A stretch of DNA of 43,168 bases, taken from positions 1 to 43,168 of the IMG/VR virus record IMGVR_UViG_3300045988_127339; one strand, written 5' to 3'. Shown here piece by piece: positions 13,174 to 26,150 of the stretch (position 1 is the stretch's first letter; each line of letters opens with the position of its first letter). Below the pieces are notes generated by a model. That model worked only from the letters and a program-made list of their open reading frames with translations. It was not told where the DNA came from and did not search any database. This stretch comes from a virus. A program made the position numbers and the translations under genes.

Positions 13174-14547
13174 ATGCAGCAATTTCACCCGCACCCGTAT
13201 CAGCAGGCGGGCATCGAGGCCATTCTGGAAAAGCCCGGAGTGGCCCTCTGGATGGAGATGGGACTCGGCAAGACCGTCGTGACCCTGACCGCCATCGACC
13301 AGCTCCTCTATGACCGGCTGGAGATCCGCCGGGTGCTCATCATCGCGCCCCGGAAGGTGGCCGAAGCGACGTGGCAGGACGAGGCAGCCAAGTGGGAGCA
13401 CCTGCGGCATCTGCGCCTCTCCACCGTGCTGGGCAGCGAGAAGCAGCGTCTCGCCGCGCTGGCTGCCCCGGCGGATATTTACATCATCAACCGAGAGAAC
13501 ACGGCGTGGCTGGTGCAGACGCTGGGCAGGAAGTGGGATTTCGACATGGTGGTGCTGGATGAGGCGTCCAGCTTCAAGAACCATGCAGCCCAGCGCTTCA
13601 AAGCCCTCAAAGCCGTGCGCCCCCGCATCCACAAGCTGGTGGAGCTGACCGGGACGCCCAGCCCCAACGGCCTGCTGGACCTCTGGGCGCAGGTCTGGCT
13701 GCTGGATCAGGGGCAGCGGCTGGGCAGGTACATCACCCACTACCGACAGCAGTACTTCTGGCCCACCCAGTACAGCTACGAGCCGAAAGCAGAGGCTGCG
13801 GAGGCCATCCATACCGCCATCCGGGACATCGTCCTCAGCTTCAAAGCCGCCGACCACCTGACCCTGCCGGAGAAGATCACCGAGGACATCCCGGTGGTGC
13901 TGGACGAAACGGCCCGGGACCTCTACAAGACCCTCGAGCGGGAGTATCTGCTGAACGTGGACGGCGAGGCCATCACCGCCCAGCAGGCCGCGTCCCTCAC
14001 CGGCAAGCTGCTCCAGCTGTGCAACGGCAGCCTCTACGACGAGGCCGGTGCCGTCCACCCGCTCCACCGGTGCAAGCTGGACGCCTTCGATGAGCTGATC
14101 GACGCGCTCGACGGCCAGAGCGCCCTTGTGTTCTACAATTTCCGCTTCGACGAGGAGCAGCTCACCGAGCTTCTGAAGACCCGCCACAGGGGCCTCAGAG
14201 CCGCCGTGCTGCGCTCCGACGCAGAGGCCCGGGCATGGAACGCCGGGGAGCTGGACGTCCTTCTGGCCCAACCTGCCAGCTGCGCCTACGGGCTGAACCT
14301 CCAGCAGGGCGGGCATCACCTCATCTGGTACAGCCTGCCGTGGAGCCTCGAGCTTTATGCGCAGGGCGAAGCCCGACTCTACCGGCAGGGCCAGACCCAG
14401 AGCGTCATCGTCCATCGCCTCATCGTCAAGGGCGGAGCCGACGCGCTGGTGGCAAAGGCCCTCACCCGCAAAGACACCGACCAGAACGCTCTGATGCAGG
14501 CCGTGAAGACCCGCATCCGGGAAGTGCAGAGAGGAGAGCACCCATGA
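13174..14547 (+). CDS. SNF2/DEAD-like helicase
   Basis: It carries motif I MEMGLGKT, motif II VLDEASSFKN, GTPSPNGLLDLW, and the C-terminal helicase motif YRQGQTQSVIVHRL. Confidence 0.9.
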   Translation: MQQFHPHPYQQAGIEAILEKPGVALWMEMGLGKTVVTLTAIDQLLYDRLEIRRVLIIAPRKVAEATWQDEAAKWEHLRHLRLSTVLGSEKQRLAALAAPADIYIINRENTAWLVQTLGRKWDFDMVVLDEASSFKNHAAQRFKALKAVRPRIHKLVELTGTPSPNGLLDLWAQVWLLDQGQRLGRYITHYRQQYFWPTQYSYEPKAEAAEAIHTAIRDIVLSFKAADHLTLPEKITEDIPVVLDETARDLYKTLEREYLLNVDGEAITAQQAASLTGKLLQLCNGSLYDEAGAVHPLHRCKLDAFDELIDALDGQSALVFYNFRFDEEQLTELLKTRHRGLRAAVLRSDAEARAWNAGELDVLLAQPASCAYGLNLQQGGHHLIWYSLPWSLELYAQGEARLYRQGQTQSVIVHRLIVKGGADALVAKALTRKDTDQNALMQAVKTRIREVQRGEHP

Positions 14548-14774
14548 GCATCCGAGCATTCCGTAGGCTGACCCGGACACAGCGCCGGGCCTTTATCGAC
14601 ACCATCACCGACCCCCTCACCCGCCGGGTGTTCGAGATCGCATTCCTCGGTCCCGGCAAGGTCAGCTGGCAGAAAGCCGCCCTGCTCTACGGCGGCGGTA
14701 TTTCCCCGGAAACGCTCCGGGTCTGGGTCTGGCGGGAGCTGCATCGCGCGAGCGCCCGCGCAGAGCGTCCGTGA
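14544..14774 (+). CDS. Small sigma-70 region-4-like / RinA-ArpU-like putative late transcription regulator
   Basis: In the 76-aa product, LTRRVFEIAFLGPGKVSWQKAALLYGGGISPETLRVWVWREL resembles a sigma region 4 HTH. The start overlaps the SNF2 stop (ATGA). Confidence 0.45.
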   Translation: MSIRAFRRLTRTQRRAFIDTITDPLTRRVFEIAFLGPGKVSWQKAALLYGGGISPETLRVWVWRELHRASARAERP

Positions 14775-14855
14775 GCGCTCCGTCTCGCCAGACAGCAGCT
14801 TTCACGCCAAAGCGCCAAAAGCCCCGCACGGAGCCTCGCAGCCGCCAGTGCGTGC

Positions 14856-14893
14856 AAATCGTAACGCTTTTGAGGTTTTACCCATGCTATGCT
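14856..14893 (+). promoter_or_regulatory. Phage-specific promoter-like element AAATCGTAACGSTTT-N17-TAnnnT (copy 1)
   Basis: It reads AAATCGTAACG, 21 nt, then TATGCT. The same architecture and spacing recur at 16646, 17752 and 26113. Confidence 0.55.
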
Positions 14894-14922
14894 TTCTGAG
14901 ATAACGACACAGGAGGCAGAGC

Positions 14923-15597
14923 ATGGGTTTTTCGAATGAACGGATGAGGACGGCGCAGCTGGCGGGATGGTTCCTGCTAGATGGCCTCGAGCTGACCCCG
15001 GCGGGCAACCCCATCACCCAGCCGCAGGAGCTGCCCTTCGGGGTGGATCACCTCATCGGTTTCAATGAGCTGCTGACCTGCAAGCACCCGGAGAGTGCAG
15101 GGGTGCATTTCTTCCTCGACGACTACCAGTTCGAGCGATTCTGGCGTCAGCCGCAGCGGTATCTCGCCGCGCTGGCAAAGTGCCCGTTGGTCATCGGGCC
15201 GGACTTTTCGCTGTACACCGACTTCCCCGCCCCGCTGCAGCGGTGGAACCACTACCGCAATCAGCTGCTCACCGCGTATCTCCAGCGGCAAGGCATCTGC
15301 GCCATCCCTGCTGCCGGATGGGCCGACGATGCCAGCTTTGACTGGTGCTTCGACGGCATCTCCCCCGGAGGGGCAGTGGCGGTAAGCACGGTGGGCTGTC
15401 TTGTGCACAGGCAGGCGGAGGCCGGATTTCTCGCAGGGCTGGAAGAACTGCTGCGGCAGGTGCGGCCCGAGGAGCTGCTGCTCTACGGCAGCGTGACGCC
15501 CGACATCGCAAACCTCCTGCAAAGCAAGAGCATCCCGTGGCAAGCATTTCCACACGGTATGGCGGCCCGCAGAAGGGCCAGAGAGGAGGCGCGGTAA
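14923..15597 (+). CDS. DUF4417-like protein (function unknown)
   Basis: VHFFLDDYQFERFWRQPQRY...PDFSLYTDFP matches my recollection of the DUF4417 signature. It has an AGGAGG RBS. Confidence 0.6.
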   Translation: MGFSNERMRTAQLAGWFLLDGLELTPAGNPITQPQELPFGVDHLIGFNELLTCKHPESAGVHFFLDDYQFERFWRQPQRYLAALAKCPLVIGPDFSLYTDFPAPLQRWNHYRNQLLTAYLQRQGICAIPAAGWADDASFDWCFDGISPGGAVAVSTVGCLVHRQAEAGFLAGLEELLRQVRPEELLLYGSVTPDIANLLQSKSIPWQAFPHGMAARRRAREEAR

Positions 15598-16397
15598 TGG
15601 GCGGCAGAGGAAGCAGCATGAGAGGCAGTCAGGGCATGGGAGGAGGCGCAGGAGCGCCCGCAGCCGCCGCGCAGGCGATGCCCACGGTACAGGCGGCACC
15701 GGCGGTGCAGCAGGCAGGCCCGCCCACCGGCGCAAACGGCTTTGGACATCTGACGCCCCAGCAGGTGGCCGCATTTGAGAACGCCGCCCAGCAGCAGATG
15801 CAGCGCGACCCGGCGCTGGCGGCAGGCGTCGTGGACTACATCAACCCGGTCATGCAGAGCAACGGCAAGGCCCTGAGCCAGAACGCCAACTGGGCCGCAG
15901 CGAACGGTCTGCCCCTGACCAAGCGGCAGCAGGCCATGATGGACGCAGTGGATAAGCTGGCCAAGCCCATCGGGCAGGAGACCACCCTCTACCGCGCCGA
16001 CCACGACGACTTCCTGAAGCGCCTGAAGGTCAACAACTACCAGAGCATGAGCGACAGCCAGCTGCGCAAGGCGCTGGTAGGCAAGACATGGACGAATGAA
16101 TGTCTGGAGTCCACGGCCTACGACAGCCGGGATAACCCCTTCTGGCCGCAGCCGAACGGACGCAGCACCGGCAAGTCCGGGCAAGGCGGCTCCGTCTCCG
16201 GCAACCGCGAGGTACTGATCCGGTACCACACCGCCAAAAGCGCCCGCGCGGCATTCATCCAGCCCAGCCAGTCCGAAGCGGTTCTGGCGGTGGGCACCCA
16301 TCACAAAATCACCGGCGTCCGGTCTACCCGCACCGGACCGTCTCACACATACCTGACCGGCAAACGTGTGATTGAACTGGAAATCGAAGTGTGGTAA
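15597..16397 (+). CDS. ADP-ribosyltransferase, R-S-E type (C3/VIP2-like), with a Gly-rich N-terminal leader
   Basis: It carries TTLYRAD (Arg), LESTAYD (S-T) and QPSQSEAVLAVG (Q-x-E ARTT motif). The leader is MGGRGSSMRGSQGMGGGAG. The start overlaps the upstream stop (TAATG). Confidence 0.75.
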   Translation: MGGRGSSMRGSQGMGGGAGAPAAAAQAMPTVQAAPAVQQAGPPTGANGFGHLTPQQVAAFENAAQQQMQRDPALAAGVVDYINPVMQSNGKALSQNANWAAANGLPLTKRQQAMMDAVDKLAKPIGQETTLYRADHDDFLKRLKVNNYQSMSDSQLRKALVGKTWTNECLESTAYDSRDNPFWPQPNGRSTGKSGQGGSVSGNREVLIRYHTAKSARAAFIQPSQSEAVLAVGTHHKITGVRSTRTGPSHTYLTGKRVIELEIEVW

Positions 16398-16419
16398 AAT
16401 CAATTCGGAGGACTTTACT

Positions 16420-16647
16420 ATGGCAGCAAAGAAAGACCCTTATGCAAAGTTCCGCAAGCTCAAGCAGCACCCGGACTACGACAAAATGACCCCGGCAGAT
16501 CGCCGCCTGTACGGCGAATACCTGCAGTCGGACGAGCAGAAGTTCCGGCCTCTCGACACCCCGAAAACGAGCCGACCTTTCCCCAATCTGGGCATGGAGA
16601 AGCCCGCAGCGAAGAAGAAGACCGCTGCAAAATCGAAGAAAAAGTAA
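16420..16647 (+). CDS. Small basic protein with a Lys-rich C-terminal tail
   Basis: The 75-aa product has a CGGAGGA RBS, contains KDPYAKF and ends PAAKKKTAAKSKKK. Confidence 0.65.
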   Translation: MAAKKDPYAKFRKLKQHPDYDKMTPADRRLYGEYLQSDEQKFRPLDTPKTSRPFPNLGMEKPAAKKKTAAKSKKK

Positions 16648-16683
16648 ATCGTAACGGTTTGCCCCCGCATTTCGTGTTACCCT
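16646..16683 (+). promoter_or_regulatory. Promoter-like element AAATCGTAACG-N21-TACCCT (copy 2)
   Basis: The motif and spacing match copy 1. It lies directly upstream of the second ART-like gene. Confidence 0.45.
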
Positions 16684-16717
16684 TGACCGAGAAATTCACG
16701 GCCAAGGGAGGAAGGAC

Positions 16718-17530
16718 ATGGGCGGCAGAGGCACAAGCATGGGCGGCAGCCACGGCATGGGCGGAGGCGGCGGTGCAGCGAAAGCGGCATCGGCAGCGCC
16801 CCAGACCCGGGAGCAGCAGCTGCTTGCACAGATCAAGGGCAACCCGGCGGCCCTGATGCAGATGAGCGATCAGGACGCGGCAGATACGGTAGCAGCCATC
16901 GAAAAGCTGCCCATCGCCACCGACGGCACCGAGCGAGACTGCTTCATCCAGCGGTACATGAACGCCATCGGATGGAGCAACAACAAGCCCACCGTGCTGG
17001 ACGACAACGCATACGAGAAAGCCCGCAAGCAGGCCGGTGAGGAATCCATGTACCACTCGGCAAAGAACTTTGGCGGCAAGACCGGCGGCGTATTCAACGA
17101 TCAGCTCATGACCGGCAAAACCGCGTTTGCGTTTGAAGGACTGTACGGTGCAGGCACTTACTGGGCGCATGACAGTGCAGGCGCTTCCGCTGGGTACGGC
17201 CCGTATCAGGTCAAAGCATTTCTCAACGGTAAGGCAAAGGTTACGACCACATACCAGCTGAGTCAGGAATGGAATCAGCTCGCAGCAAAAAAGCCCCGGC
17301 TGTTCGCCGCATTAAGCAGTGCAAAGCGAGGCAGCTATGGCGGAGATAACGAAACGATCTACCCATTTCTTGCCGCAGCGAAGGGATTTAACGTCATCAT
17401 CAAAAGCGACTACTCAAACAGCAGCACGTCGCGCAGGCGAGGGCAGTATGTCATTACTTTGGATCGCAGCGTGACCACAATGAGCAGCAAAACCATCAAC
17501 AATGCATGGAGGTCCATGGCAAACTGGTAA
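16718..17530 (+). CDS. Second Gly-leader protein, possibly an H-Y-E (PARP/ART-PolyVal-like) ADP-ribosyltransferase
   Basis: The leader MGGRGTSMGGSHGMGGGGG is paralogous to the one at 15597. ESMYHSAK (His) and GLYGAGTYWAHD (GxGxY[FW]A) resemble H-Y-E ART motifs. Confidence 0.45.
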   Translation: MGGRGTSMGGSHGMGGGGGAAKAASAAPQTREQQLLAQIKGNPAALMQMSDQDAADTVAAIEKLPIATDGTERDCFIQRYMNAIGWSNNKPTVLDDNAYEKARKQAGEESMYHSAKNFGGKTGGVFNDQLMTGKTAFAFEGLYGAGTYWAHDSAGASAGYGPYQVKAFLNGKAKVTTTYQLSQEWNQLAAKKPRLFAALSSAKRGSYGGDNETIYPFLAAAKGFNVIIKSDYSNSSTSRRRGQYVITLDRSVTTMSSKTINNAWRSMANW

Positions 17531-17543
17531 AGGGAGGATACAA

Positions 17544-17753
17544 ATGGCAGAATCCAGATGGGACGAAAAGTTGATTACTCGGTTAGAGGAGAGTCCCGAG
17601 GGACAGAAGCACGGGCAGGGCGCCCGCAAGTACGCAGTCGATTGCTGGTACATCCATATCGGCGAGTGGGAGGCTCCCAAGGGATGGAAAGACCCCTACG
17701 CCAAGCTGGACAAAGCCGCAAAGGCCAAGCCCAAGGCGAAGTCCAAAAAGTAA
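17544..17753 (+). CDS. Small basic protein with a Lys-rich C-terminal tail (counterpart of 16420-16647)
   Basis: The 69-aa product has an AGGGAGGA RBS, contains KDPYAKL and ends KAAKAKPKAKSKK. Confidence 0.65.
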   Translation: MAESRWDEKLITRLEESPEGQKHGQGARKYAVDCWYIHIGEWEAPKGWKDPYAKLDKAAKAKPKAKSKK

Positions 17754-17813
17754 TTCATAACGCTTTTTCCGTAGACTCTCTGGTATAATCGCCAGAGAGT
17801 CTATTTTTGTTTG
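17752..17813 (+). terminator. Degenerate copy 3 of the promoter-like motif overlapping a perfect 12-bp hairpin terminator
   Basis: It reads AATTCATAACG-N21-TATAAT. TAGACTCTCTGG (17772-17783) and CCAGAGAGTCTA (17792-17803) form a stem that encloses the TATAAT in its loop, followed by TTTTTGTTTG. Confidence 0.6.
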
Positions 17814-17828
17814 CCCGGGAGGTATGGC

Positions 17829-19094
17829 ATGGACAGCGCAAAGCACCAGATCGAGTATAAGCGGCTGGACGAGATACGGCCCTACGACAACAATCCCCGG
17901 CGCAACGACGAGGCCGCAAAGGCAGTGGCCAACAGCATCCGGGAGTTCGGCTTCCAGTCCCCCATCATTGTGGACAGGGACGGCGTCATTATCGCCGGAC
18001 ACACCCGGTACAAGGCCGCCCGGAGGCTCAAGCTCCAGACCGTGCCGGTCATCGTGGCCGCAGAGCTGACGCCCGAGCAGGTCAAGGCCCTGCGCATCGC
18101 GGACAACTCCACCGGCGAAGTGGCCGAGTGGGACTTGCAGCTTCTGGTGCAGGAGCTGACCGGCATCGACTACGACATGGCCGACTTCGGTCTGAATCTT
18201 GAGATCAGGGTGGACGAAGAGGTCAAAGAGGACGACTTCGACGCTGAGCCGCCCGAGAAGCCCATCACCCAACGGGGAGACATCTGGCTGCTGGGCGACC
18301 ACCGGGTCATGTGCGGCGACAGCACCAGCCCGCAGGATGTGGAGCGGCTCATGGACGGCCAGCTGGCTGACCTGCTGCTCACCGACCCGCCCTACAACGT
18401 CAACTACGAGGGCAGCAACGGCAAGAAGATCGAGAACGACAACATGGCAGAGAGCGAGTTCCGGCAGTTCCTGCTCAAGGCATACAGCCGGGCCTTCGAC
18501 GCCTGCCGCACCGGGGCCAGCGCGTATATCTTCCACGCCGACACCGAAGGCGAGGCCTTCCGGGCCATGTTCCGGGAGGCTGGCTGGGGGCTGCATGGTT
18601 GCCTCGTCTGGGTCAAGAACAGCCTTGTGCTGGGCCGCAGCGACTACCAATGGCAGCACGAACCCTGCCTGTACGGCTGGAAGCCCGGGGCCAACCACTA
18701 CTTCATCAACGACCGCAGCCAGACCACCGTCATCGACGACGCGAAGCCAGACGACCTGCGGCACATGAAGAAGGACCAACTGCTGGACTGGGCCATCAAG
18801 GCGCAGGCCCTGCTCACCCAGACGCCCAGCAGCGTCCTCCGCTGCGATAAGCCGCCCCGCAACGCAGAGCACCCCACCATGAAGCCGGTGGTGCTCTGCG
18901 GCAGGCTCATCAAGAACAGCTCGAAGCCCGGCCAGACCGTGCTGGACCTGTTCGGCGGCAGCGGCTCCACCCTCATCGCCTGCGAGCAGCTGAGCCGGAG
19001 GTGCTGCACGATGGAGTACGACCCGAGGTATGTGGACGTCATCGTGAAACGGTGGGAGGACTTCACCGGCGAAAAGGCGATCCGCCTCAAATAA
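17829..19094 (+). CDS. ParB-N (sulfiredoxin-like) domain fused to an N6A/N4C DNA methyltransferase (DPPY)
   Basis: The N-terminus is IRPYDNNPRRNDE...IIVDRDGVIIAGHTRYKAA. The methyltransferase motifs are LLLTDPPYNV and, at the C-terminus, VLDLFGGSGSTLIACE. The ATG at 17829 follows a GGGAGG RBS. No cognate restriction enzyme is present in the window. Confidence 0.85.
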   Translation: MDSAKHQIEYKRLDEIRPYDNNPRRNDEAAKAVANSIREFGFQSPIIVDRDGVIIAGHTRYKAARRLKLQTVPVIVAAELTPEQVKALRIADNSTGEVAEWDLQLLVQELTGIDYDMADFGLNLEIRVDEEVKEDDFDAEPPEKPITQRGDIWLLGDHRVMCGDSTSPQDVERLMDGQLADLLLTDPPYNVNYEGSNGKKIENDNMAESEFRQFLLKAYSRAFDACRTGASAYIFHADTEGEAFRAMFREAGWGLHGCLVWVKNSLVLGRSDYQWQHEPCLYGWKPGANHYFINDRSQTTVIDDAKPDDLRHMKKDQLLDWAIKAQALLTQTPSSVLRCDKPPRNAEHPTMKPVVLCGRLIKNSSKPGQTVLDLFGGSGSTLIACEQLSRRCCTMEYDPRYVDVIVKRWEDFTGEKAIRLK

Positions 19095-22392: not shown

Positions 22393-22564
22393 AAAGGCCC
22401 GGATGGAGCAAGCCGCAGCCCGTCTGGACCATCTGGCAGGCAACGCCAGCGTTCTCCGCTCTCCGGAGCTGTGGGAGCGGTATCATGAAGCCGTAAAGAT
22501 CACCGAGCTGCTGGGCTTCCATGTCACCCAGAGCGGTGGACGCCATACGGTGACGCCATGCTGA
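22376..22564 (+). CDS. Hypothetical small protein
   Basis: The 62-aa ORF has an AAAGGAG RBS and is coupled to both flanking genes. Confidence 0.5.
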   Translation: MAVNTKKARMEQAAARLDHLAGNASVLRSPELWERYHEAVKITELLGFHVTQSGGRHTVTPC

Positions 22565-23766
22565 CGCCGAAGCAGGTAGACCGCTACACCGGCCTGCTGG
22601 CCGCACCATGGGACGAGCTGGGTGAGCGCATCCTCCGGGACATGGTGCGCCGCATCCTCAAGGCAGGGCGGGTCACAGACACTGCCCGGTGGCAGATGCT
22701 CCGTGCGGAGGCACTGGGTGCAAGCCGGGCCTATCTCATCCAGCAGATGAACGCCATCGTGCAGCAGATCAGCCCCAAGGAGGCCGTTCTGTTTGCCCGG
22801 GCGATGCAGGAGGCCTACGACATCGACGGGAAGGACGCAGCCGCAGCGGGCCGTGCATTGCCCCCTCTGGGCGAGAGCGAGGAGGCGCAGCAGATCGTGC
22901 GCAGCGGCTACCGCCGCACCCTGAACACCCTCTACAATCTCACCCAGACCCGGGCGGTCATGGGCAACGACAACATGGTGGAGACCACCCAGCGCCAGCT
23001 GGCCTATTACCTCGACATGGCCCACTCTGACGCCGTTAGCGGGGCGTTCAGCTCCGACGACGCGGCCCGCCGTGCCCTCAACGAGCTGGCGTCCAAGGGC
23101 GTCGGGGCCATCACCTACCCCAGCGGCCATGTGGATACGCTGGATGTGGTGGTGCTGCGGGCCTGCCGCACAGGGGTCAATCAGACCGCAGGAGAGATCA
23201 CCCGGTACAACGCCGACGCCCTCGACTGCGACCTGATGGAGCTGGACGCCCACGTGGGCGCTCGCACCGGCGACGGCGGGCAGGACCTGACCAACCACAG
23301 CTGGTGGCAGGGTCAGATCGTCAGCCGGAGTGGGAAGCACGGCTACCTCTCGCTGGCCGACATCGGCTACGGCGACGTCCGGGGCTTCATGGGGGCCAAC
23401 TGCTCCCACAACTGGTCGATGTACTGGGAGGGGGCGAGCGTGCGCAGCTACACCCCCGAACGGCTGGCGAGGATCAATGCCGCCACCGTCTCCTACAACG
23501 GCAAAGACATCGGGAGGTACGCGGCCACCCAGATGCAGCGTGCACAGGAGCGCCGCATCCGGGCCGAGAAACGGGCCTTTCTTGTTGCCCGGGAAAGCGG
23601 CCAGCATGATATGGAAAAGGCCGCAGCGGACAAGCTGGCCGCCTCTCGTGCGAAGCTGAAGGACTTCTGCCATCAGACCGGTCTCCATTCCTACCAGCTG
23701 CGGGAATCTGTCCCCGGCTTTGGGCGGAGCGAGGCCGCAAGCGCAGCGGCGCAGGCGAGGAAATAA
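22558..23766 (+). CDS. Minor head / head-morphogenesis protein (SPP1 gp7 / minor capsid protein 2-like)
   Basis: The 402-aa ORF follows the portal gene. It contains HVGARTGDGGQDLTNHSWWQGQ and GANCSHNW motifs that resemble the MuF/gp7 family. Confidence 0.65.
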   Translation: MLTPKQVDRYTGLLAAPWDELGERILRDMVRRILKAGRVTDTARWQMLRAEALGASRAYLIQQMNAIVQQISPKEAVLFARAMQEAYDIDGKDAAAAGRALPPLGESEEAQQIVRSGYRRTLNTLYNLTQTRAVMGNDNMVETTQRQLAYYLDMAHSDAVSGAFSSDDAARRALNELASKGVGAITYPSGHVDTLDVVVLRACRTGVNQTAGEITRYNADALDCDLMELDAHVGARTGDGGQDLTNHSWWQGQIVSRSGKHGYLSLADIGYGDVRGFMGANCSHNWSMYWEGASVRSYTPERLARINAATVSYNGKDIGRYAATQMQRAQERRIRAEKRAFLVARESGQHDMEKAAADKLAASRAKLKDFCHQTGLHSYQLRESVPGFGRSEAASAAAQARK

Positions 23767-26111: not shown

Positions 26112-26112
26112 C

Positions 26113-26150
26113 AAATCGTAACGGTTTTGGGGATGAAGCTGTGGTACGAT
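26113..26150 (+). promoter_or_regulatory. Promoter-like element AAATCGTAACG-N21-TACGAT (copy 4), upstream of the scaffold/capsid genes
   Basis: The 11-mer and the spacing are identical to copies 1 and 2. Confidence 0.55.

Follow-up and report, generated by a model that had tools for sequence, protein, structure and literature searches.

Why do two different ADP-ribosyltransferase (ART)-like enzymes of one phage begin with the same short, glycine-rich leader? This question is raised by the IMG/VR virus record IMGVR_UViG_3300045988_127339. Its positions 1 to 43,168, a stretch of 43,168 nucleotides (nt), are referred to as the window, and coordinates are window positions unless another record or locus is named. 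The window is a near-complete temperate siphophage of Faecalibacterium with a guanine-cytosine (GC) content of 62%. Two adjacent cassettes on the plus strand (15597-16647 and 16718-17753) each consist of an enzyme gene (A or B) and a gene for a small protein with a lysine tail (sA or sB). Duplicated two-gene cassettes had been described here in an initial annotation, and every element of that description was found in place on the plus strand. The leader also heads unrelated proteins in other phages, where the first leader gene is directly preceded by a gene of the DUF4417 family. As a description, two ART-fold enzymes with a conserved modular leader and a linkage to DUF4417, we hold this with high confidence. 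The leader may serve as a tag on proteins that are carried in the virion.

The shared leader

Leader A (MGGRGSSMRGSQGMGGGAG) and leader B (MGGRGTSMGGSHGMGGGGG) are identical in 15 of 19 amino acids (aa), with the common pattern MGGRG.SM.GS[QH]GMGGG. They had been annotated as near-identical, which holds, except that the nucleotide identity is 81% (46 of 57 nt) and not about 75%. Both enzymes have the same architecture, a leader of 14-19 aa followed by a disordered linker of variable length and a catalytic domain. For A, the leader (aa 1-19) and an Ala/Pro/Gln-rich linker (aa 20-39) are encoded at 15597-15713 (+); for B, the leader and a short disordered linker are encoded at 16718-16783 (+). 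The predicted local distance difference test (pLDDT) value is below 50 in these regions (residues 1-39 of A and 1-22 of B). Homologues of A keep the leader and vary in linker length. In the linker of A (window 15654-15720), length differs by tandem units such as AAPAVQ and AAQAMP (P0013, P0033, P0056, L024, L033, L038; here and below, L numbers are loci and P numbers are homologues), which fits a flexible spacer with little sequence constraint.

A Gly-rich sequence in a genome of 62% GC might be low complexity that arose by chance. The same layout of the two cassettes, together with a profile comparison that links the N-terminal halves of the enzymes (see below), might also point to a functionless remnant of tandem duplication. 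The conservation data already refute this explanation. A degenerate back-translation of the leader matches exactly two sites in the 43 kb, compared to 0.01 expected, and none of 100 shuffled sequences reaches two. The leader is not absent from homologues, as would be expected of chance low complexity: 84 of 120 homologues of A and 82 of 102 homologues of B start with MGGRG, and most of the others have one of a few alternative variants. Homologues of about 40% identity still have the leader, as do B-family representatives at distances of up to E 1e-15. An exhaustive profile search returned 613 B-family clusters, and many very distant stand-alone members still start with MGGRG[SAG]S. The consensus consists of Met, GGRG[SGT]S, a hydrophobic residue and xxS[QH]G[MV]. 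When IMG/VR was scanned with the leader pattern, 40 loci were obtained, most of them with an A-then-B pair about 1.1 kb apart. The leader also occurs on unrelated cargo in phages of Firmicutes and Actinobacteria with a GC content from 48% to over 60%. Its initial interpretation as a modular N-terminal signal is thus borne out by its conservation in homologues and its presence on unrelated cargo.

Within one genome, A and B have matching leader variants. Six variant classes were distinguished; when the six pairs were permuted, a matching as good as the observed one was reached by only 2 of 720 permutations. The matched classes (A/B) are MGGRGSSM/MGGRGTSM, MSQGGASY/MSQGGASY, MGGSGSKY/MGGSGSKY, MAKVRRAF/(V)AKVRRSF and two more. 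Examples are L041 (MSQGGASYSGSQGV in A, MSQGGASYGGSHGM in B), L043 (MGGSGSKYGSSQGM in A, MGGSGSKYGGSHGM in B) and L047 (MAKVRRAFATSHGT in A, (V)AKVRRSFNTSQGV in B); two further matched pairs are found in L048 and L049. In the window, 4 of the 12 shared degenerate codons differ between the leaders. The match is thus kept at the protein level, which argues against a (very) recent gene conversion. For the same reason, the likeness of the leaders at the nucleotide level fits selection on the protein, and an RNA element was rejected; an Rfam search of 14500-18000 matched no family.

In all leader variants, the second residue is small (G, S or A). A small second residue predicts removal of the initiator Met by methionine aminopeptidase. 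Met removal is therefore predicted throughout, and it would expose the same free N-terminus as cleavage by the protease Prp (see below). Eukaryote-type N-myristoylation (MGxxxS) was considered as a function of the leader and rejected; the common form fits this motif, but the MSQGG, MSKRG and MAKVRR variants do not.

DUF4417 as the constant neighbour

The DUF4417 gene (224 aa, 14923-15597, +; Pfam PF14386, E 5.8e-49) was missed in the initial annotation. It is the sole constant companion of the leader in every context examined. Its TAA stop codon (15595-15597) overlaps the ATG of A by one base. We know of no function for this domain. The first leader gene is located directly after the DUF4417 gene, often overlapping it, in 14 of 14 contexts from phages of Firmicutes and Actinobacteria. 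These contexts are the window lineage, L048, L053/L054, L055, L056, and phages of Streptococcus, Gordonia and Mycobacterium (loci L041, L043, L046-L049, L053-L065). DUF4417 was detected in 492 of 50,697 GenBank phage records, 385 of which are Mycobacterium phages. Since the leader is found, in every phage examined, on the protein encoded right after DUF4417, it probably marks proteins that are delivered with the phage DNA.

The module is located next to or inside the terminase/portal/MuF module. In L048 (48% GC; terminase and portal from families other than those of the window), a ParB-DUF4417 gene is followed by an A-like gene, a small gene, a B-like gene, a second small gene and the small terminase subunit (TerS), with an MGGRGQAS protein encoded just before the large subunit (TerL). 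The order is portal, DUF4417, leader protein, MuF, scaffold and capsid in L053/L054; portal, MuF, DUF4417, two consecutive MSKRGSGS leader proteins and scaffold in L055; and TerS, DUF4417, leader protein, TerL and portal in L056, with a MuF-ADPrib_exo_Tox fusion downstream. A leader gene directly follows DUF4417 in the Streptococcus phages IPP48, MM1 and Javan91, as well as in the mycobacteriophages Turbido, Ebony, Faith1, OhShagHennessy and L5. In Gordonia phage Strosahl, gp1 (DUF4417) is followed by gp2, which starts with MGGRGSGGGG. In cluster A mycobacteriophages, the pair corresponds to left-arm genes 1-2 or 2-3. The module, a DUF4417 gene followed by one to three genes for leader proteins with varied cargo, is widespread in phages.

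Several GenBank start assignments appear to cut the leader off (Turbido gp3, Ebony gp2 and Javan91_0030). In these cases, in-frame upstream MGGRG starts overlap the DUF4417 gene. Turbido gp3 (L057, NC_023707) is annotated from position 1662, and the ATG at 1320 leads to MGGRGSKGG and a Gly-rich linker of about 110 aa (1320-2252). The MGGRG start is upstream of 1191 in Ebony (L059, MH338236) and upstream of 3073 in Javan91 (L062, MK448834). In L5 (L063, Z18946), MGGRGSKGGPGPG is encoded at 1081, and the MGGRGSKGG open reading frame (ORF) is one frame off the annotated gp2, which is consistent with a 1-nt indel relative to Turbido.

Leader cargo and Prp-type propeptides

The leader is found on C3/VIP2-like ARTs, PARP-like ARTs, a family of 125-150 aa, a RadC/JAB protein and "LYHRTS" proteins of about 115 aa. 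The 125-150 aa family (for example L048:3489-3902; P0369-P0460) has 92 clusters, of which 51 start with MGGRG and 21 with MSKRGSGS. Its members end with ...AGLKWDG.TK.W.RK and are encoded between TerS and TerL or between portal and MuF. In the pneumococcal phages IPP48 (L058, 4536-5282) and MM1 (orf29; L064, 3069-3815), the leader protein is encoded after ParB-DUF4417. It has INFTL directly before GGGRGANF, followed by HNHPNGS..S..D, and is putatively of the RadC/JAB type, as judged by eye. Faith1 and OhShagHennessy code for proteins of about 115 aa that start with (V)MGGRGGGGGG and MGRGRHSG. In one homologue (P0293), MuF, a B-like domain and a Zeta toxin are combined in a single protein.

In seven homologues, a propeptide with the pattern M..[DN]L[QR][LF]F is located directly before GGRG. 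Two belong to the B family (P0305, P0239) and five to the third, 125-150 aa family (P0375, P0439, P0441, P0446, P0448). Examples are MLRFDLQLF before GGRGGG, MVRLDLQLF before GGRGGG and MRLDLQFF before GGRGAS; in P0429, the same propeptide precedes AKRG. This pattern resembles the motif MLxx(D/N)LQ(F/L)F'A at which ribosomal protein L27 is processed by Prp (PMC9405229). Prp also processes the capsid and scaffold proteins of phage 80alpha, and elsewhere the motif is found on capsid or major tail proteins (PMC5744158). A propeptide in this position implies that cleavage by host Prp would expose the same N-terminus as Met removal. The match to the Prp substrates (L27, 80alpha capsid and scaffold) covers seven leader homologues from two cargo families but not the window proteins: A and B have no Prp propeptide and start directly with MGGRG. 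In L053, the motif was sought in the capsid and scaffold proteins and is absent from both. The residues after the cleavage site differ from the A(S/H)KK of L27, except in the AKRG and SKRGSGS variants. The leader as a mimic of the N-terminal tail of L27 is therefore at best a weak lead from sequence likeness.

The strict adjacency to DUF4417 (14 of 14) and a probable translational coupling to the first leader gene would also fit enzymes that are not packaged. Like ModA and ModB of phage T4, A and B could be takeover enzymes acting in the producing cell, and the leader could be a substrate or recognition tag for DUF4417, leading to modification, activation or turnover. The A/B block, leader included, is combined with either of two unrelated packaging modules, which fits a receptor other than a head protein, and the small second residue of all variants ensures a defined free N-terminus every time. 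This explanation leaves the position of the module unaccounted for, which is always at or inside the packaging/head module. Prp-type propeptides are otherwise known from structural proteins (PMC5744158), and MuF and polyvalent fusions carry the same range of cargo. We thus regard takeover enzymes without packaging as doubtful.

The two enzymes

Enzyme A (266 aa, 15597-16397, +) is a predicted R-S-E ART with a Q-x-E motif and resembles C3 exoenzymes in its modeled structure. This agrees with the initial annotation. The proposed catalytic residues are Arg133 (15993-15995), Ser172-Thr173 (16110-16115), Gln225 (16269-16271) and Glu227 (16275-16277), all on the plus strand. They are part of the motifs LYR, E-S-T-A and Q225-S-E227. 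Among 29 sequences, Y132, S172, T173, Q225 and E227 do not vary, and R133 is kept in at least 90%. The AlphaFold model has a pLDDT of 73, with residues 1-39 and 175-202 being disordered. In a Foldseek search against the PDB, the best match was C3bot1 (2c8b; E 4.6e-10, probability 1.0, template modeling (TM) score by target 0.58-0.63). Plx2a, C3lim, iota Ia, CDTa, VIP2 and Certhrax were matched as well, and so was a Listeria ART-ARH effector-immunity pair. There were 140 PDB matches at E <= 1e-3, and all of the best 50 of the 140 are ARTs. A Pfam scan gave no match for window A at E <= 1, a profile search of A against PDB sequences gave none either, and neither Pfam nor PHROGs yielded anything usable for the four cassette proteins. 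Homologues of 40-49% identity (P0104-P0118) carry PF03496.

C3 exoenzymes (C3bot1/2, C3lim and C3stau; PF03496) are phage-borne in Clostridium botulinum. They share with A the R, S-T and Q-x-E elements and four N-terminal helices before the ART core. The sequence identity is only 15-18%, however. A lacks a secretion signal and has instead the GGRG leader and the disordered linker, a low-confidence insertion of 28 residues (175-202) and a cognate small partner. Nothing points to Rho GTPases as its target in a bacterial host. The stand-alone "VIP2-like toxin" or "ADP-ribosyltransferase exoenzyme toxin" genes of actinophages (Turbido gp3, Strosahl gp2, Ebony gp2) belong to the same module. Located at the start of the late/structural arm, it comprises DUF4417 (annotated as "nuclease"), an ART starting with MGGRGS/K and a long Gly-rich linker, and an ORF of about 100 aa. 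With hhalign, A can be aligned to the catalytic half of Strosahl gp2 (E 2.9e-5). In contrast to A, these ARTs have E-x-E instead of Q-x-E; a second, PARP-like cassette is missing, and the small protein is acidic and tail-less. Stand-alone VIP2-like toxins of cluster A phages have been noted before, with an unclear role (PMC7302621).

Enzyme B (270 aa, 16718-17530, +) has an ART fold of the H-Y type (PARP/ART-PolyVal/AcrIF11-like) according to AlphaFold and Foldseek. The model has a pLDDT of 88 and a predicted TM score (pTM) of 0.83. The key residues are His113 (17054-17056, +) and Tyr148 (17159-17161, +). PDB matches include AcrIF11 (6kyf; probability 0.99, TM by target 0.51), PARP4 (E 0.02) and tankyrase-1 (E 0.1), and the TM scores of B matches are modest (0.25-0.5). 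Among BFVD models, a "PolyVal ADP-Ribosyltransferase" (E 3.7e-4, probability 0.99), a capsid-protease/MuF fusion and several large polyvalent proteins were matched. Within the PDB, the best E-value of B was obtained for 9k3a_B, a 1071 aa pre-ejectosome protein of cyanophage A4 (E 1.4e-3, probability 0.80, low TM). This modeled likeness is suggestive of an ejected protein but weak.

Conservation was analyzed with 41 sequences of the B family. Y112-H113, on a predicted strand (111-115), reaches a conservation of 90% or more, and G144, G146 and Y148 never vary. The element GxGxY[FW]A aligns with GAGIYFAE of tankyrase-2; with the family profile, this was also the only match among PDB sequences, a weak one (E about 0.6). 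No acidic residue is conserved after Y148 in these sequences, and the position before Y244 is variable (Q, C, D, M, T, G, S). Instead of a Glu, an Asn (N225) and an Arg (R250) are invariant. B had been annotated as H-Y-E/PARP-like, with MYHS and GAGTYWA as key elements. The H-Y fold stands, and these two are indeed the conserved His and Tyr elements; the third catalytic residue, Glu, is not conserved, so that only two-thirds of the H-Y-E triad are present. Window B has no Pfam match. PARP was matched below threshold in 4 of the 41 members (best E 2.9e-4) and ART-PolyVal in one distant B relative of 684 aa (E 0.0028; 18.9 bits compared to a cutoff of 31.2). B is thus not a member of PARP or ART-PolyVal at the Pfam level. 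An H-Y ART-like mode of action is supported as far as predicted NAD binding is concerned, which does not extend to the chemistry. An ART fold by structure prediction, as had been anticipated, is found in both proteins (C3bot1 for A; AcrIF11, PARP4, tankyrase and PolyVal-ART for B).

B shares the fold, the strand-1 His and GxGxY[FW]A with ART-PolyVal (PF18760), PARP (PF00644) and AcrIF11. 6KYF is AcrIF11, a diphtheria-like ART with the non-canonical residues H-F-H-D (PMC12421852), and both AcrIF11 and B depart from canonical H-Y-E. B differs from PolyVal and PARP proteins by an additional N-terminal helical domain (residues 31-106), and it is a stand-alone protein with a leader, not a domain of a giant polyvalent protein. 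The B-type domain also occurs as the C-terminal half of proteins of about 480-550 aa (P0234, P0257, P0265, P0284 and about 30 similar representatives). Their N-terminal part of about 250 aa has a conserved ..LGYRDMNSRF.. and matches neither Pfam nor PHROGs; when distant relatives of B and long fusions with the B domain were scanned with PHROGs, there was no match either. In L046 (6004-6195), B is truncated to a pseudogene of 63 aa.

The enzymes behind the leader had been considered to be different. BLASTP indeed finds nothing in common between A and B beyond the leader. They are not wholly unrelated, though: a profile-profile comparison aligns A 1-168 with B 1-138 at 97% probability, with ETTLYRAD aligned to EESLYHSD. 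A and B may thus be distant paralogues in their N-terminal halves, as far as this alignment goes, with the leader supplying much of the score.

The small partner proteins

The small protein sA (75 aa, 16420-16647, +) has a core KFRPLDTP...PFPNLGM, a Lys tail KKKTAAKSKKK, a Shine-Dalgarno sequence GGAGG and an isoelectric point (pI) of 10.1. The protein sB (69 aa, 17544-17753, +; pI 9.4) has conserved W35, G40, P45 and W48-K-D-P-Y52 and the Lys tail KAAKAKPKAKSKK. As annotated, both contain KDPYAK[FL] and end in a Lys tail, with 8 K/R among the last 20 residues. The small genes indeed follow directly after the enzyme genes, with gaps of 22 nt (A-sA) and 13 nt (B-sB) instead of the 14-23 nt given initially, and a GGAGG-type Shine-Dalgarno sequence precedes both. 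In related loci, sA proteins after A have three body types, all with motif and tail. A linear motif F-x-x-[LR]-D-[TS]-P ... PF.[ND]L is found in these otherwise differing bodies. An alignment of sB proteins from diverged loci indicates a genuine small family. The small ORFs are thus conserved genes, and their body type co-varies with the enzyme subtype. The two small proteins of one genome have the same C-terminal tail (...KAKPKKK in the window lineage, [IF]R[KN]Y[LV]N..K in L048). In L049 (1411-1889), an sB-like gene is located upstream of B. Candidate roles for sA and sB are that of a cognate chaperone, an inhibitor or, via the tail, a nucleic-acid tether.

Two further ideas about these genes were rejected. 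A sigma70-like site (TTGAAC, 17 nt, TAAAAT, with TG) is located at 16372-16400 (+), inside the end of gene A and upstream of sA; as a source of separate sA expression it is not above chance (1 found, 0.9 expected). Frameshifting or readthrough at the AAAAAG-TAA ends is contradicted by each small gene having its own Shine-Dalgarno sequence. In addition, a third post-stop motif in relatives follows a gene ending with TGCAAGTAA, which has no slippery run.

An enzyme gene followed by a small cognate ORF, the body type of which co-varies with the enzyme subtype, would fit toxin-immunity or toxin-antitoxin cassettes. A and B would then be toxic ARTs, sA and sB immunity proteins, and the leader an export or processing signal. 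Such cassettes would serve prophage addiction, abortive infection, superinfection exclusion or interbacterial competition, as proposed for MuF toxins. The phage is temperate (integrase, antirepressor), an ART-ARH effector-immunity pair is among the structural matches of A, and B is pseudogenized in L046. The sigma70-like site upstream of sA would also fit, although it is not above chance. MuF toxins are reported to have immunity genes after them (PMC5576092). Several features do not agree with this explanation. Both partners are basic, while inhibitor pairs are usually oppositely charged. Scans of the window turned up neither a secretion signal nor a MuF/LXG/Rhs trafficking domain, nor any secretion genes. 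The leader is also present on small cargo without toxin-like features, always after DUF4417. The identical Lys tail of both small proteins would remain unexplained, and the sB-like gene of L049 precedes B. Toxin-immunity cassettes are thus considered unlikely.

The tails raise another possibility, nucleic-acid-directed ADP-ribosylation. The Lys-tailed partners would bind DNA or RNA and recruit the ARTs as part of a DNA-modification neighbourhood with DUF4417 and the ParB-methylase. The ARTs would modify either phage DNA, as a means of anti-restriction, or nucleic acid and nucleoid proteins of the host. The tails are of the AKKA/KPKK type and Lys-rich; Lys-rich tails on HU, Ku and H1-like proteins bind DNA. 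The Q-x-E ARTs include the guanine-specific pierisin/Scabin group, and, in place of a Glu, an Arg and an Asn are invariant in B. Among the neighbours are a ParB-N6/N4 methylase and DUF4417, the latter being often fused to ParB (bioRxiv 10.1101/2025.10.10.680097). However, the best matches of A are the protein-targeting C3, Ia, CDTa and VIP2, and no DNA-targeting ART is among the best 50 of 140 matches (E <= 2.7e-7). Moreover, the versions from actinophages and from L048 have no Lys tail. We consider this explanation improbable.

Promoter-like elements and genome context

TAAATCGTAACG and TAATTCATAACG are located directly 3' of the stop codons of sA and sB. The initial annotation had noticed this motif after both small genes, which is correct. 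It is not specific to the cassettes, however, since it is also found before DUF4417 (14855) and before the scaffold gene (26112). The pattern TCRTAACG-N21-TANNNT has four matches in the window compared to 0.00 expected; all are intergenic and on the plus strand (pattern starts 14859, 16649, 17755, 26116). The element has the form AAnTCRTAACG[CG]TTT, with a TAnnnT hexamer exactly 23 nt after TCRTAA. Element 1 (14855-14893, +) is CAAATCGTAACGCTTT, with TATGCT 23 nt after TCGTAA, and precedes DUF4417-A-sA. Element 2 (16645-16683, +; TAAATCGTAACGGTTT, N23, TACCCT) precedes B. Element 3 (17751-17789, +; TAATTCATAACGCTTT, N23, TATAAT) precedes the ParB-methylase/terminase operon, and element 4 (26112-26150, +; CAAATCGTAACGGTTT, N23, TACGAT) precedes the scaffold and major capsid genes. 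Element and spacing are conserved in related loci. A fifth, partial match without a hexamer is located inside the portal gene (21565).

Judged by its sequence and positions, the post-stop motif is a promoter-like element common to several operons; it does not mark the boundary of a cassette. It looks like a phage-specific, perhaps late, promoter. As it is shared with the packaging and capsid operons, the cassettes would be co-expressed with packaging and head genes. An intrinsic-terminator-like hairpin with a 14-bp stem and a T-run (17771-17814, +) closes B-sB; the TATAAT of element 3 is in its loop, and the hairpin is kept in related loci. In the cluster A4 phage Kampy, genes 1-31 are expressed late (PMC4626039).

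The gene order begins with integrase, antirepressor, exonuclease, single-stranded DNA-binding protein, DNA polymerase, primase-helicase and SNF2 helicase. These are followed by DUF4417, the two cassettes, the ParB-N6/N4 methylase, TerS and TerL, so that the block DUF4417-A-sA-B-sB is placed between the replication genes and the terminase. After TerL come the SPP1-type portal, minor capsid protein 2, scaffold, major capsid, tail genes and M15 endolysin. The minor capsid protein is encoded by a separate gene (22558-23766, PF06152). Directly upstream of DUF4417, an ORF of 76 aa (14544-14771, +) begins with MSIRAFRRLTRTQRR; in L046 (4043-5008), it is fused to the N-terminus of DUF4417. This ORF was suspected to code for a late activator and has no Pfam match; a role as a small regulator acting on the promoter-like element is conceivable.

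Prophage copies of the B gene are present in metagenome-assembled genomes of Faecalibacterium and in Eubacterium sp. CAG:38. In searches against GenBank phages, tblastn gave zero matches for A and B at E <= 1e-5, so that they are encoded in no GenBank phage record, and blastn of the 8 kb neighbourhood matched the helicase and methylase genes and nothing else.

Proposed mechanism

We propose that A and B are effectors that are made late in infection and loaded into virions, and we assign a probability of roughly 0.5 to this mechanism as a whole. The enzymes would be made late, from the promoter type of the packaging and capsid operons. Their exposed GGRG... N-terminus would arise by Met removal or, where an L27-type propeptide is present, by Prp cleavage. 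It would be an incorporation or processing signal, probably acting with DUF4417, and would put the enzymes into the procapsid. In the next round, the enzymes would reach the new host cell together with the DNA and modify host targets by ADP-ribosylation at an early stage of infection. The small partner would keep the enzyme inactive or folded in the producing cell or lysogen, and the Lys tail may tether the enzyme-partner pair to nucleic acid. In other phages, the same cargo domains are carried by covalent MuF or polyvalent fusions, for which the leader would substitute.

This last step relates the module to known systems. MuF-toxins, MuF-VIP2 fusions and polyvalent proteins (PMC5576092; PMC7302621; PMC5512222) have the same cargo (ADPrib_exo_Tox ART, PARP-like ART, RadC/JAB). 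They also share the terminase/portal/MuF neighbourhood and a small downstream gene with the leader module, and L056 has both a DUF4417-leader pair and a MuF-ADPrib_exo_Tox fusion. A and B, in contrast, have no MuF domain. The minor capsid gene is separate as well, and any attachment to the head would have to go through the leader. VIP2-MuF fusions have been predicted to be virion components (PMC7302621), and phage ARTs encoded beside terminase or portal genes to be head-packaged, injected effectors (PMC9503650). The working analogy is Alt of phage T4 with its capsid-targeting sequence, a late-made phage ART with a short N-terminal signal that is packaged and injected (PMC9503650). There is no sequence similarity between Alt and the window enzymes, however, neither a prohead protease nor an LxE-type site was identified, and the window is a siphovirus and not a myovirus.

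A number of observations weigh against the proposed virion loading. The "late promoter" label is drawn from motif sharing. In the window, the block precedes the terminase and stands where the replication module ends, outside the head gene cluster. The window scan found no recognizable prohead protease, and the phage's own capsid and scaffold proteins are devoid of the Prp motif. Lineages with the A/B block have either Terminase_3 and SPP1_portal or TerL_ATPase and Phage_portal, which makes a portal-specific receptor for the leader unlikely. A profile search of DUF4417 against PDB sequences gave no credible relative of solved structure. Lacking a conserved catalytic acid, B may be inactive as a transferase. 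A basic charge on both enzyme and partner (pI 9.5-10.1) would be unusual if they formed an inhibitor pair. The downstream small protein of actinophages is acidic and without Lys tail, so that the role of the partner may differ between lineages; the tail is also missing in the L048 version.

A more general version of the proposed mechanism is put forward tentatively. Leader and DUF4417 might constitute a new, widespread tag system, in which DUF4417 recognizes or modifies the GGRG N-terminus and loads any tagged cargo (two ART classes, a RadC/JAB protein and several other domains) for co-injection. Its carriers would range from L5, cluster A and cluster L mycobacteriophages and Gordonia phages to pneumococcal MM1. 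Such a system would be a portable "address label", functionally like MuF and polyvalent fusions and the T4 capsid-targeting sequence, and mechanistically distinct from them.

Implications

A literature search found no description of the shared leader, its co-variation within genomes, the link to Prp propeptides or the obligatory DUF4417 neighbour, and the leader-DUF4417 link appears to be undescribed. What is new is a short, conserved and portable N-terminal tag on unrelated cargo, with variants matched per genome and a strict linkage to DUF4417. There is a substantial chance that the leader module is a new cargo-marking system. If the tag indeed directs virion loading or processing, this would give DUF4417 a function and account for dozens of mis-annotated gene starts. 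Effectors delivered by phages could then be found by a simple sequence rule, and designed proteins might be loaded into therapeutic phages by means of the leader. Carriers of the module among mycobacteriophages and pneumococcal phages are genetically tractable. A and B themselves are candidates for a role in host takeover or anti-defence in phages that infect Faecalibacterium, an abundant commensal of the human gut.

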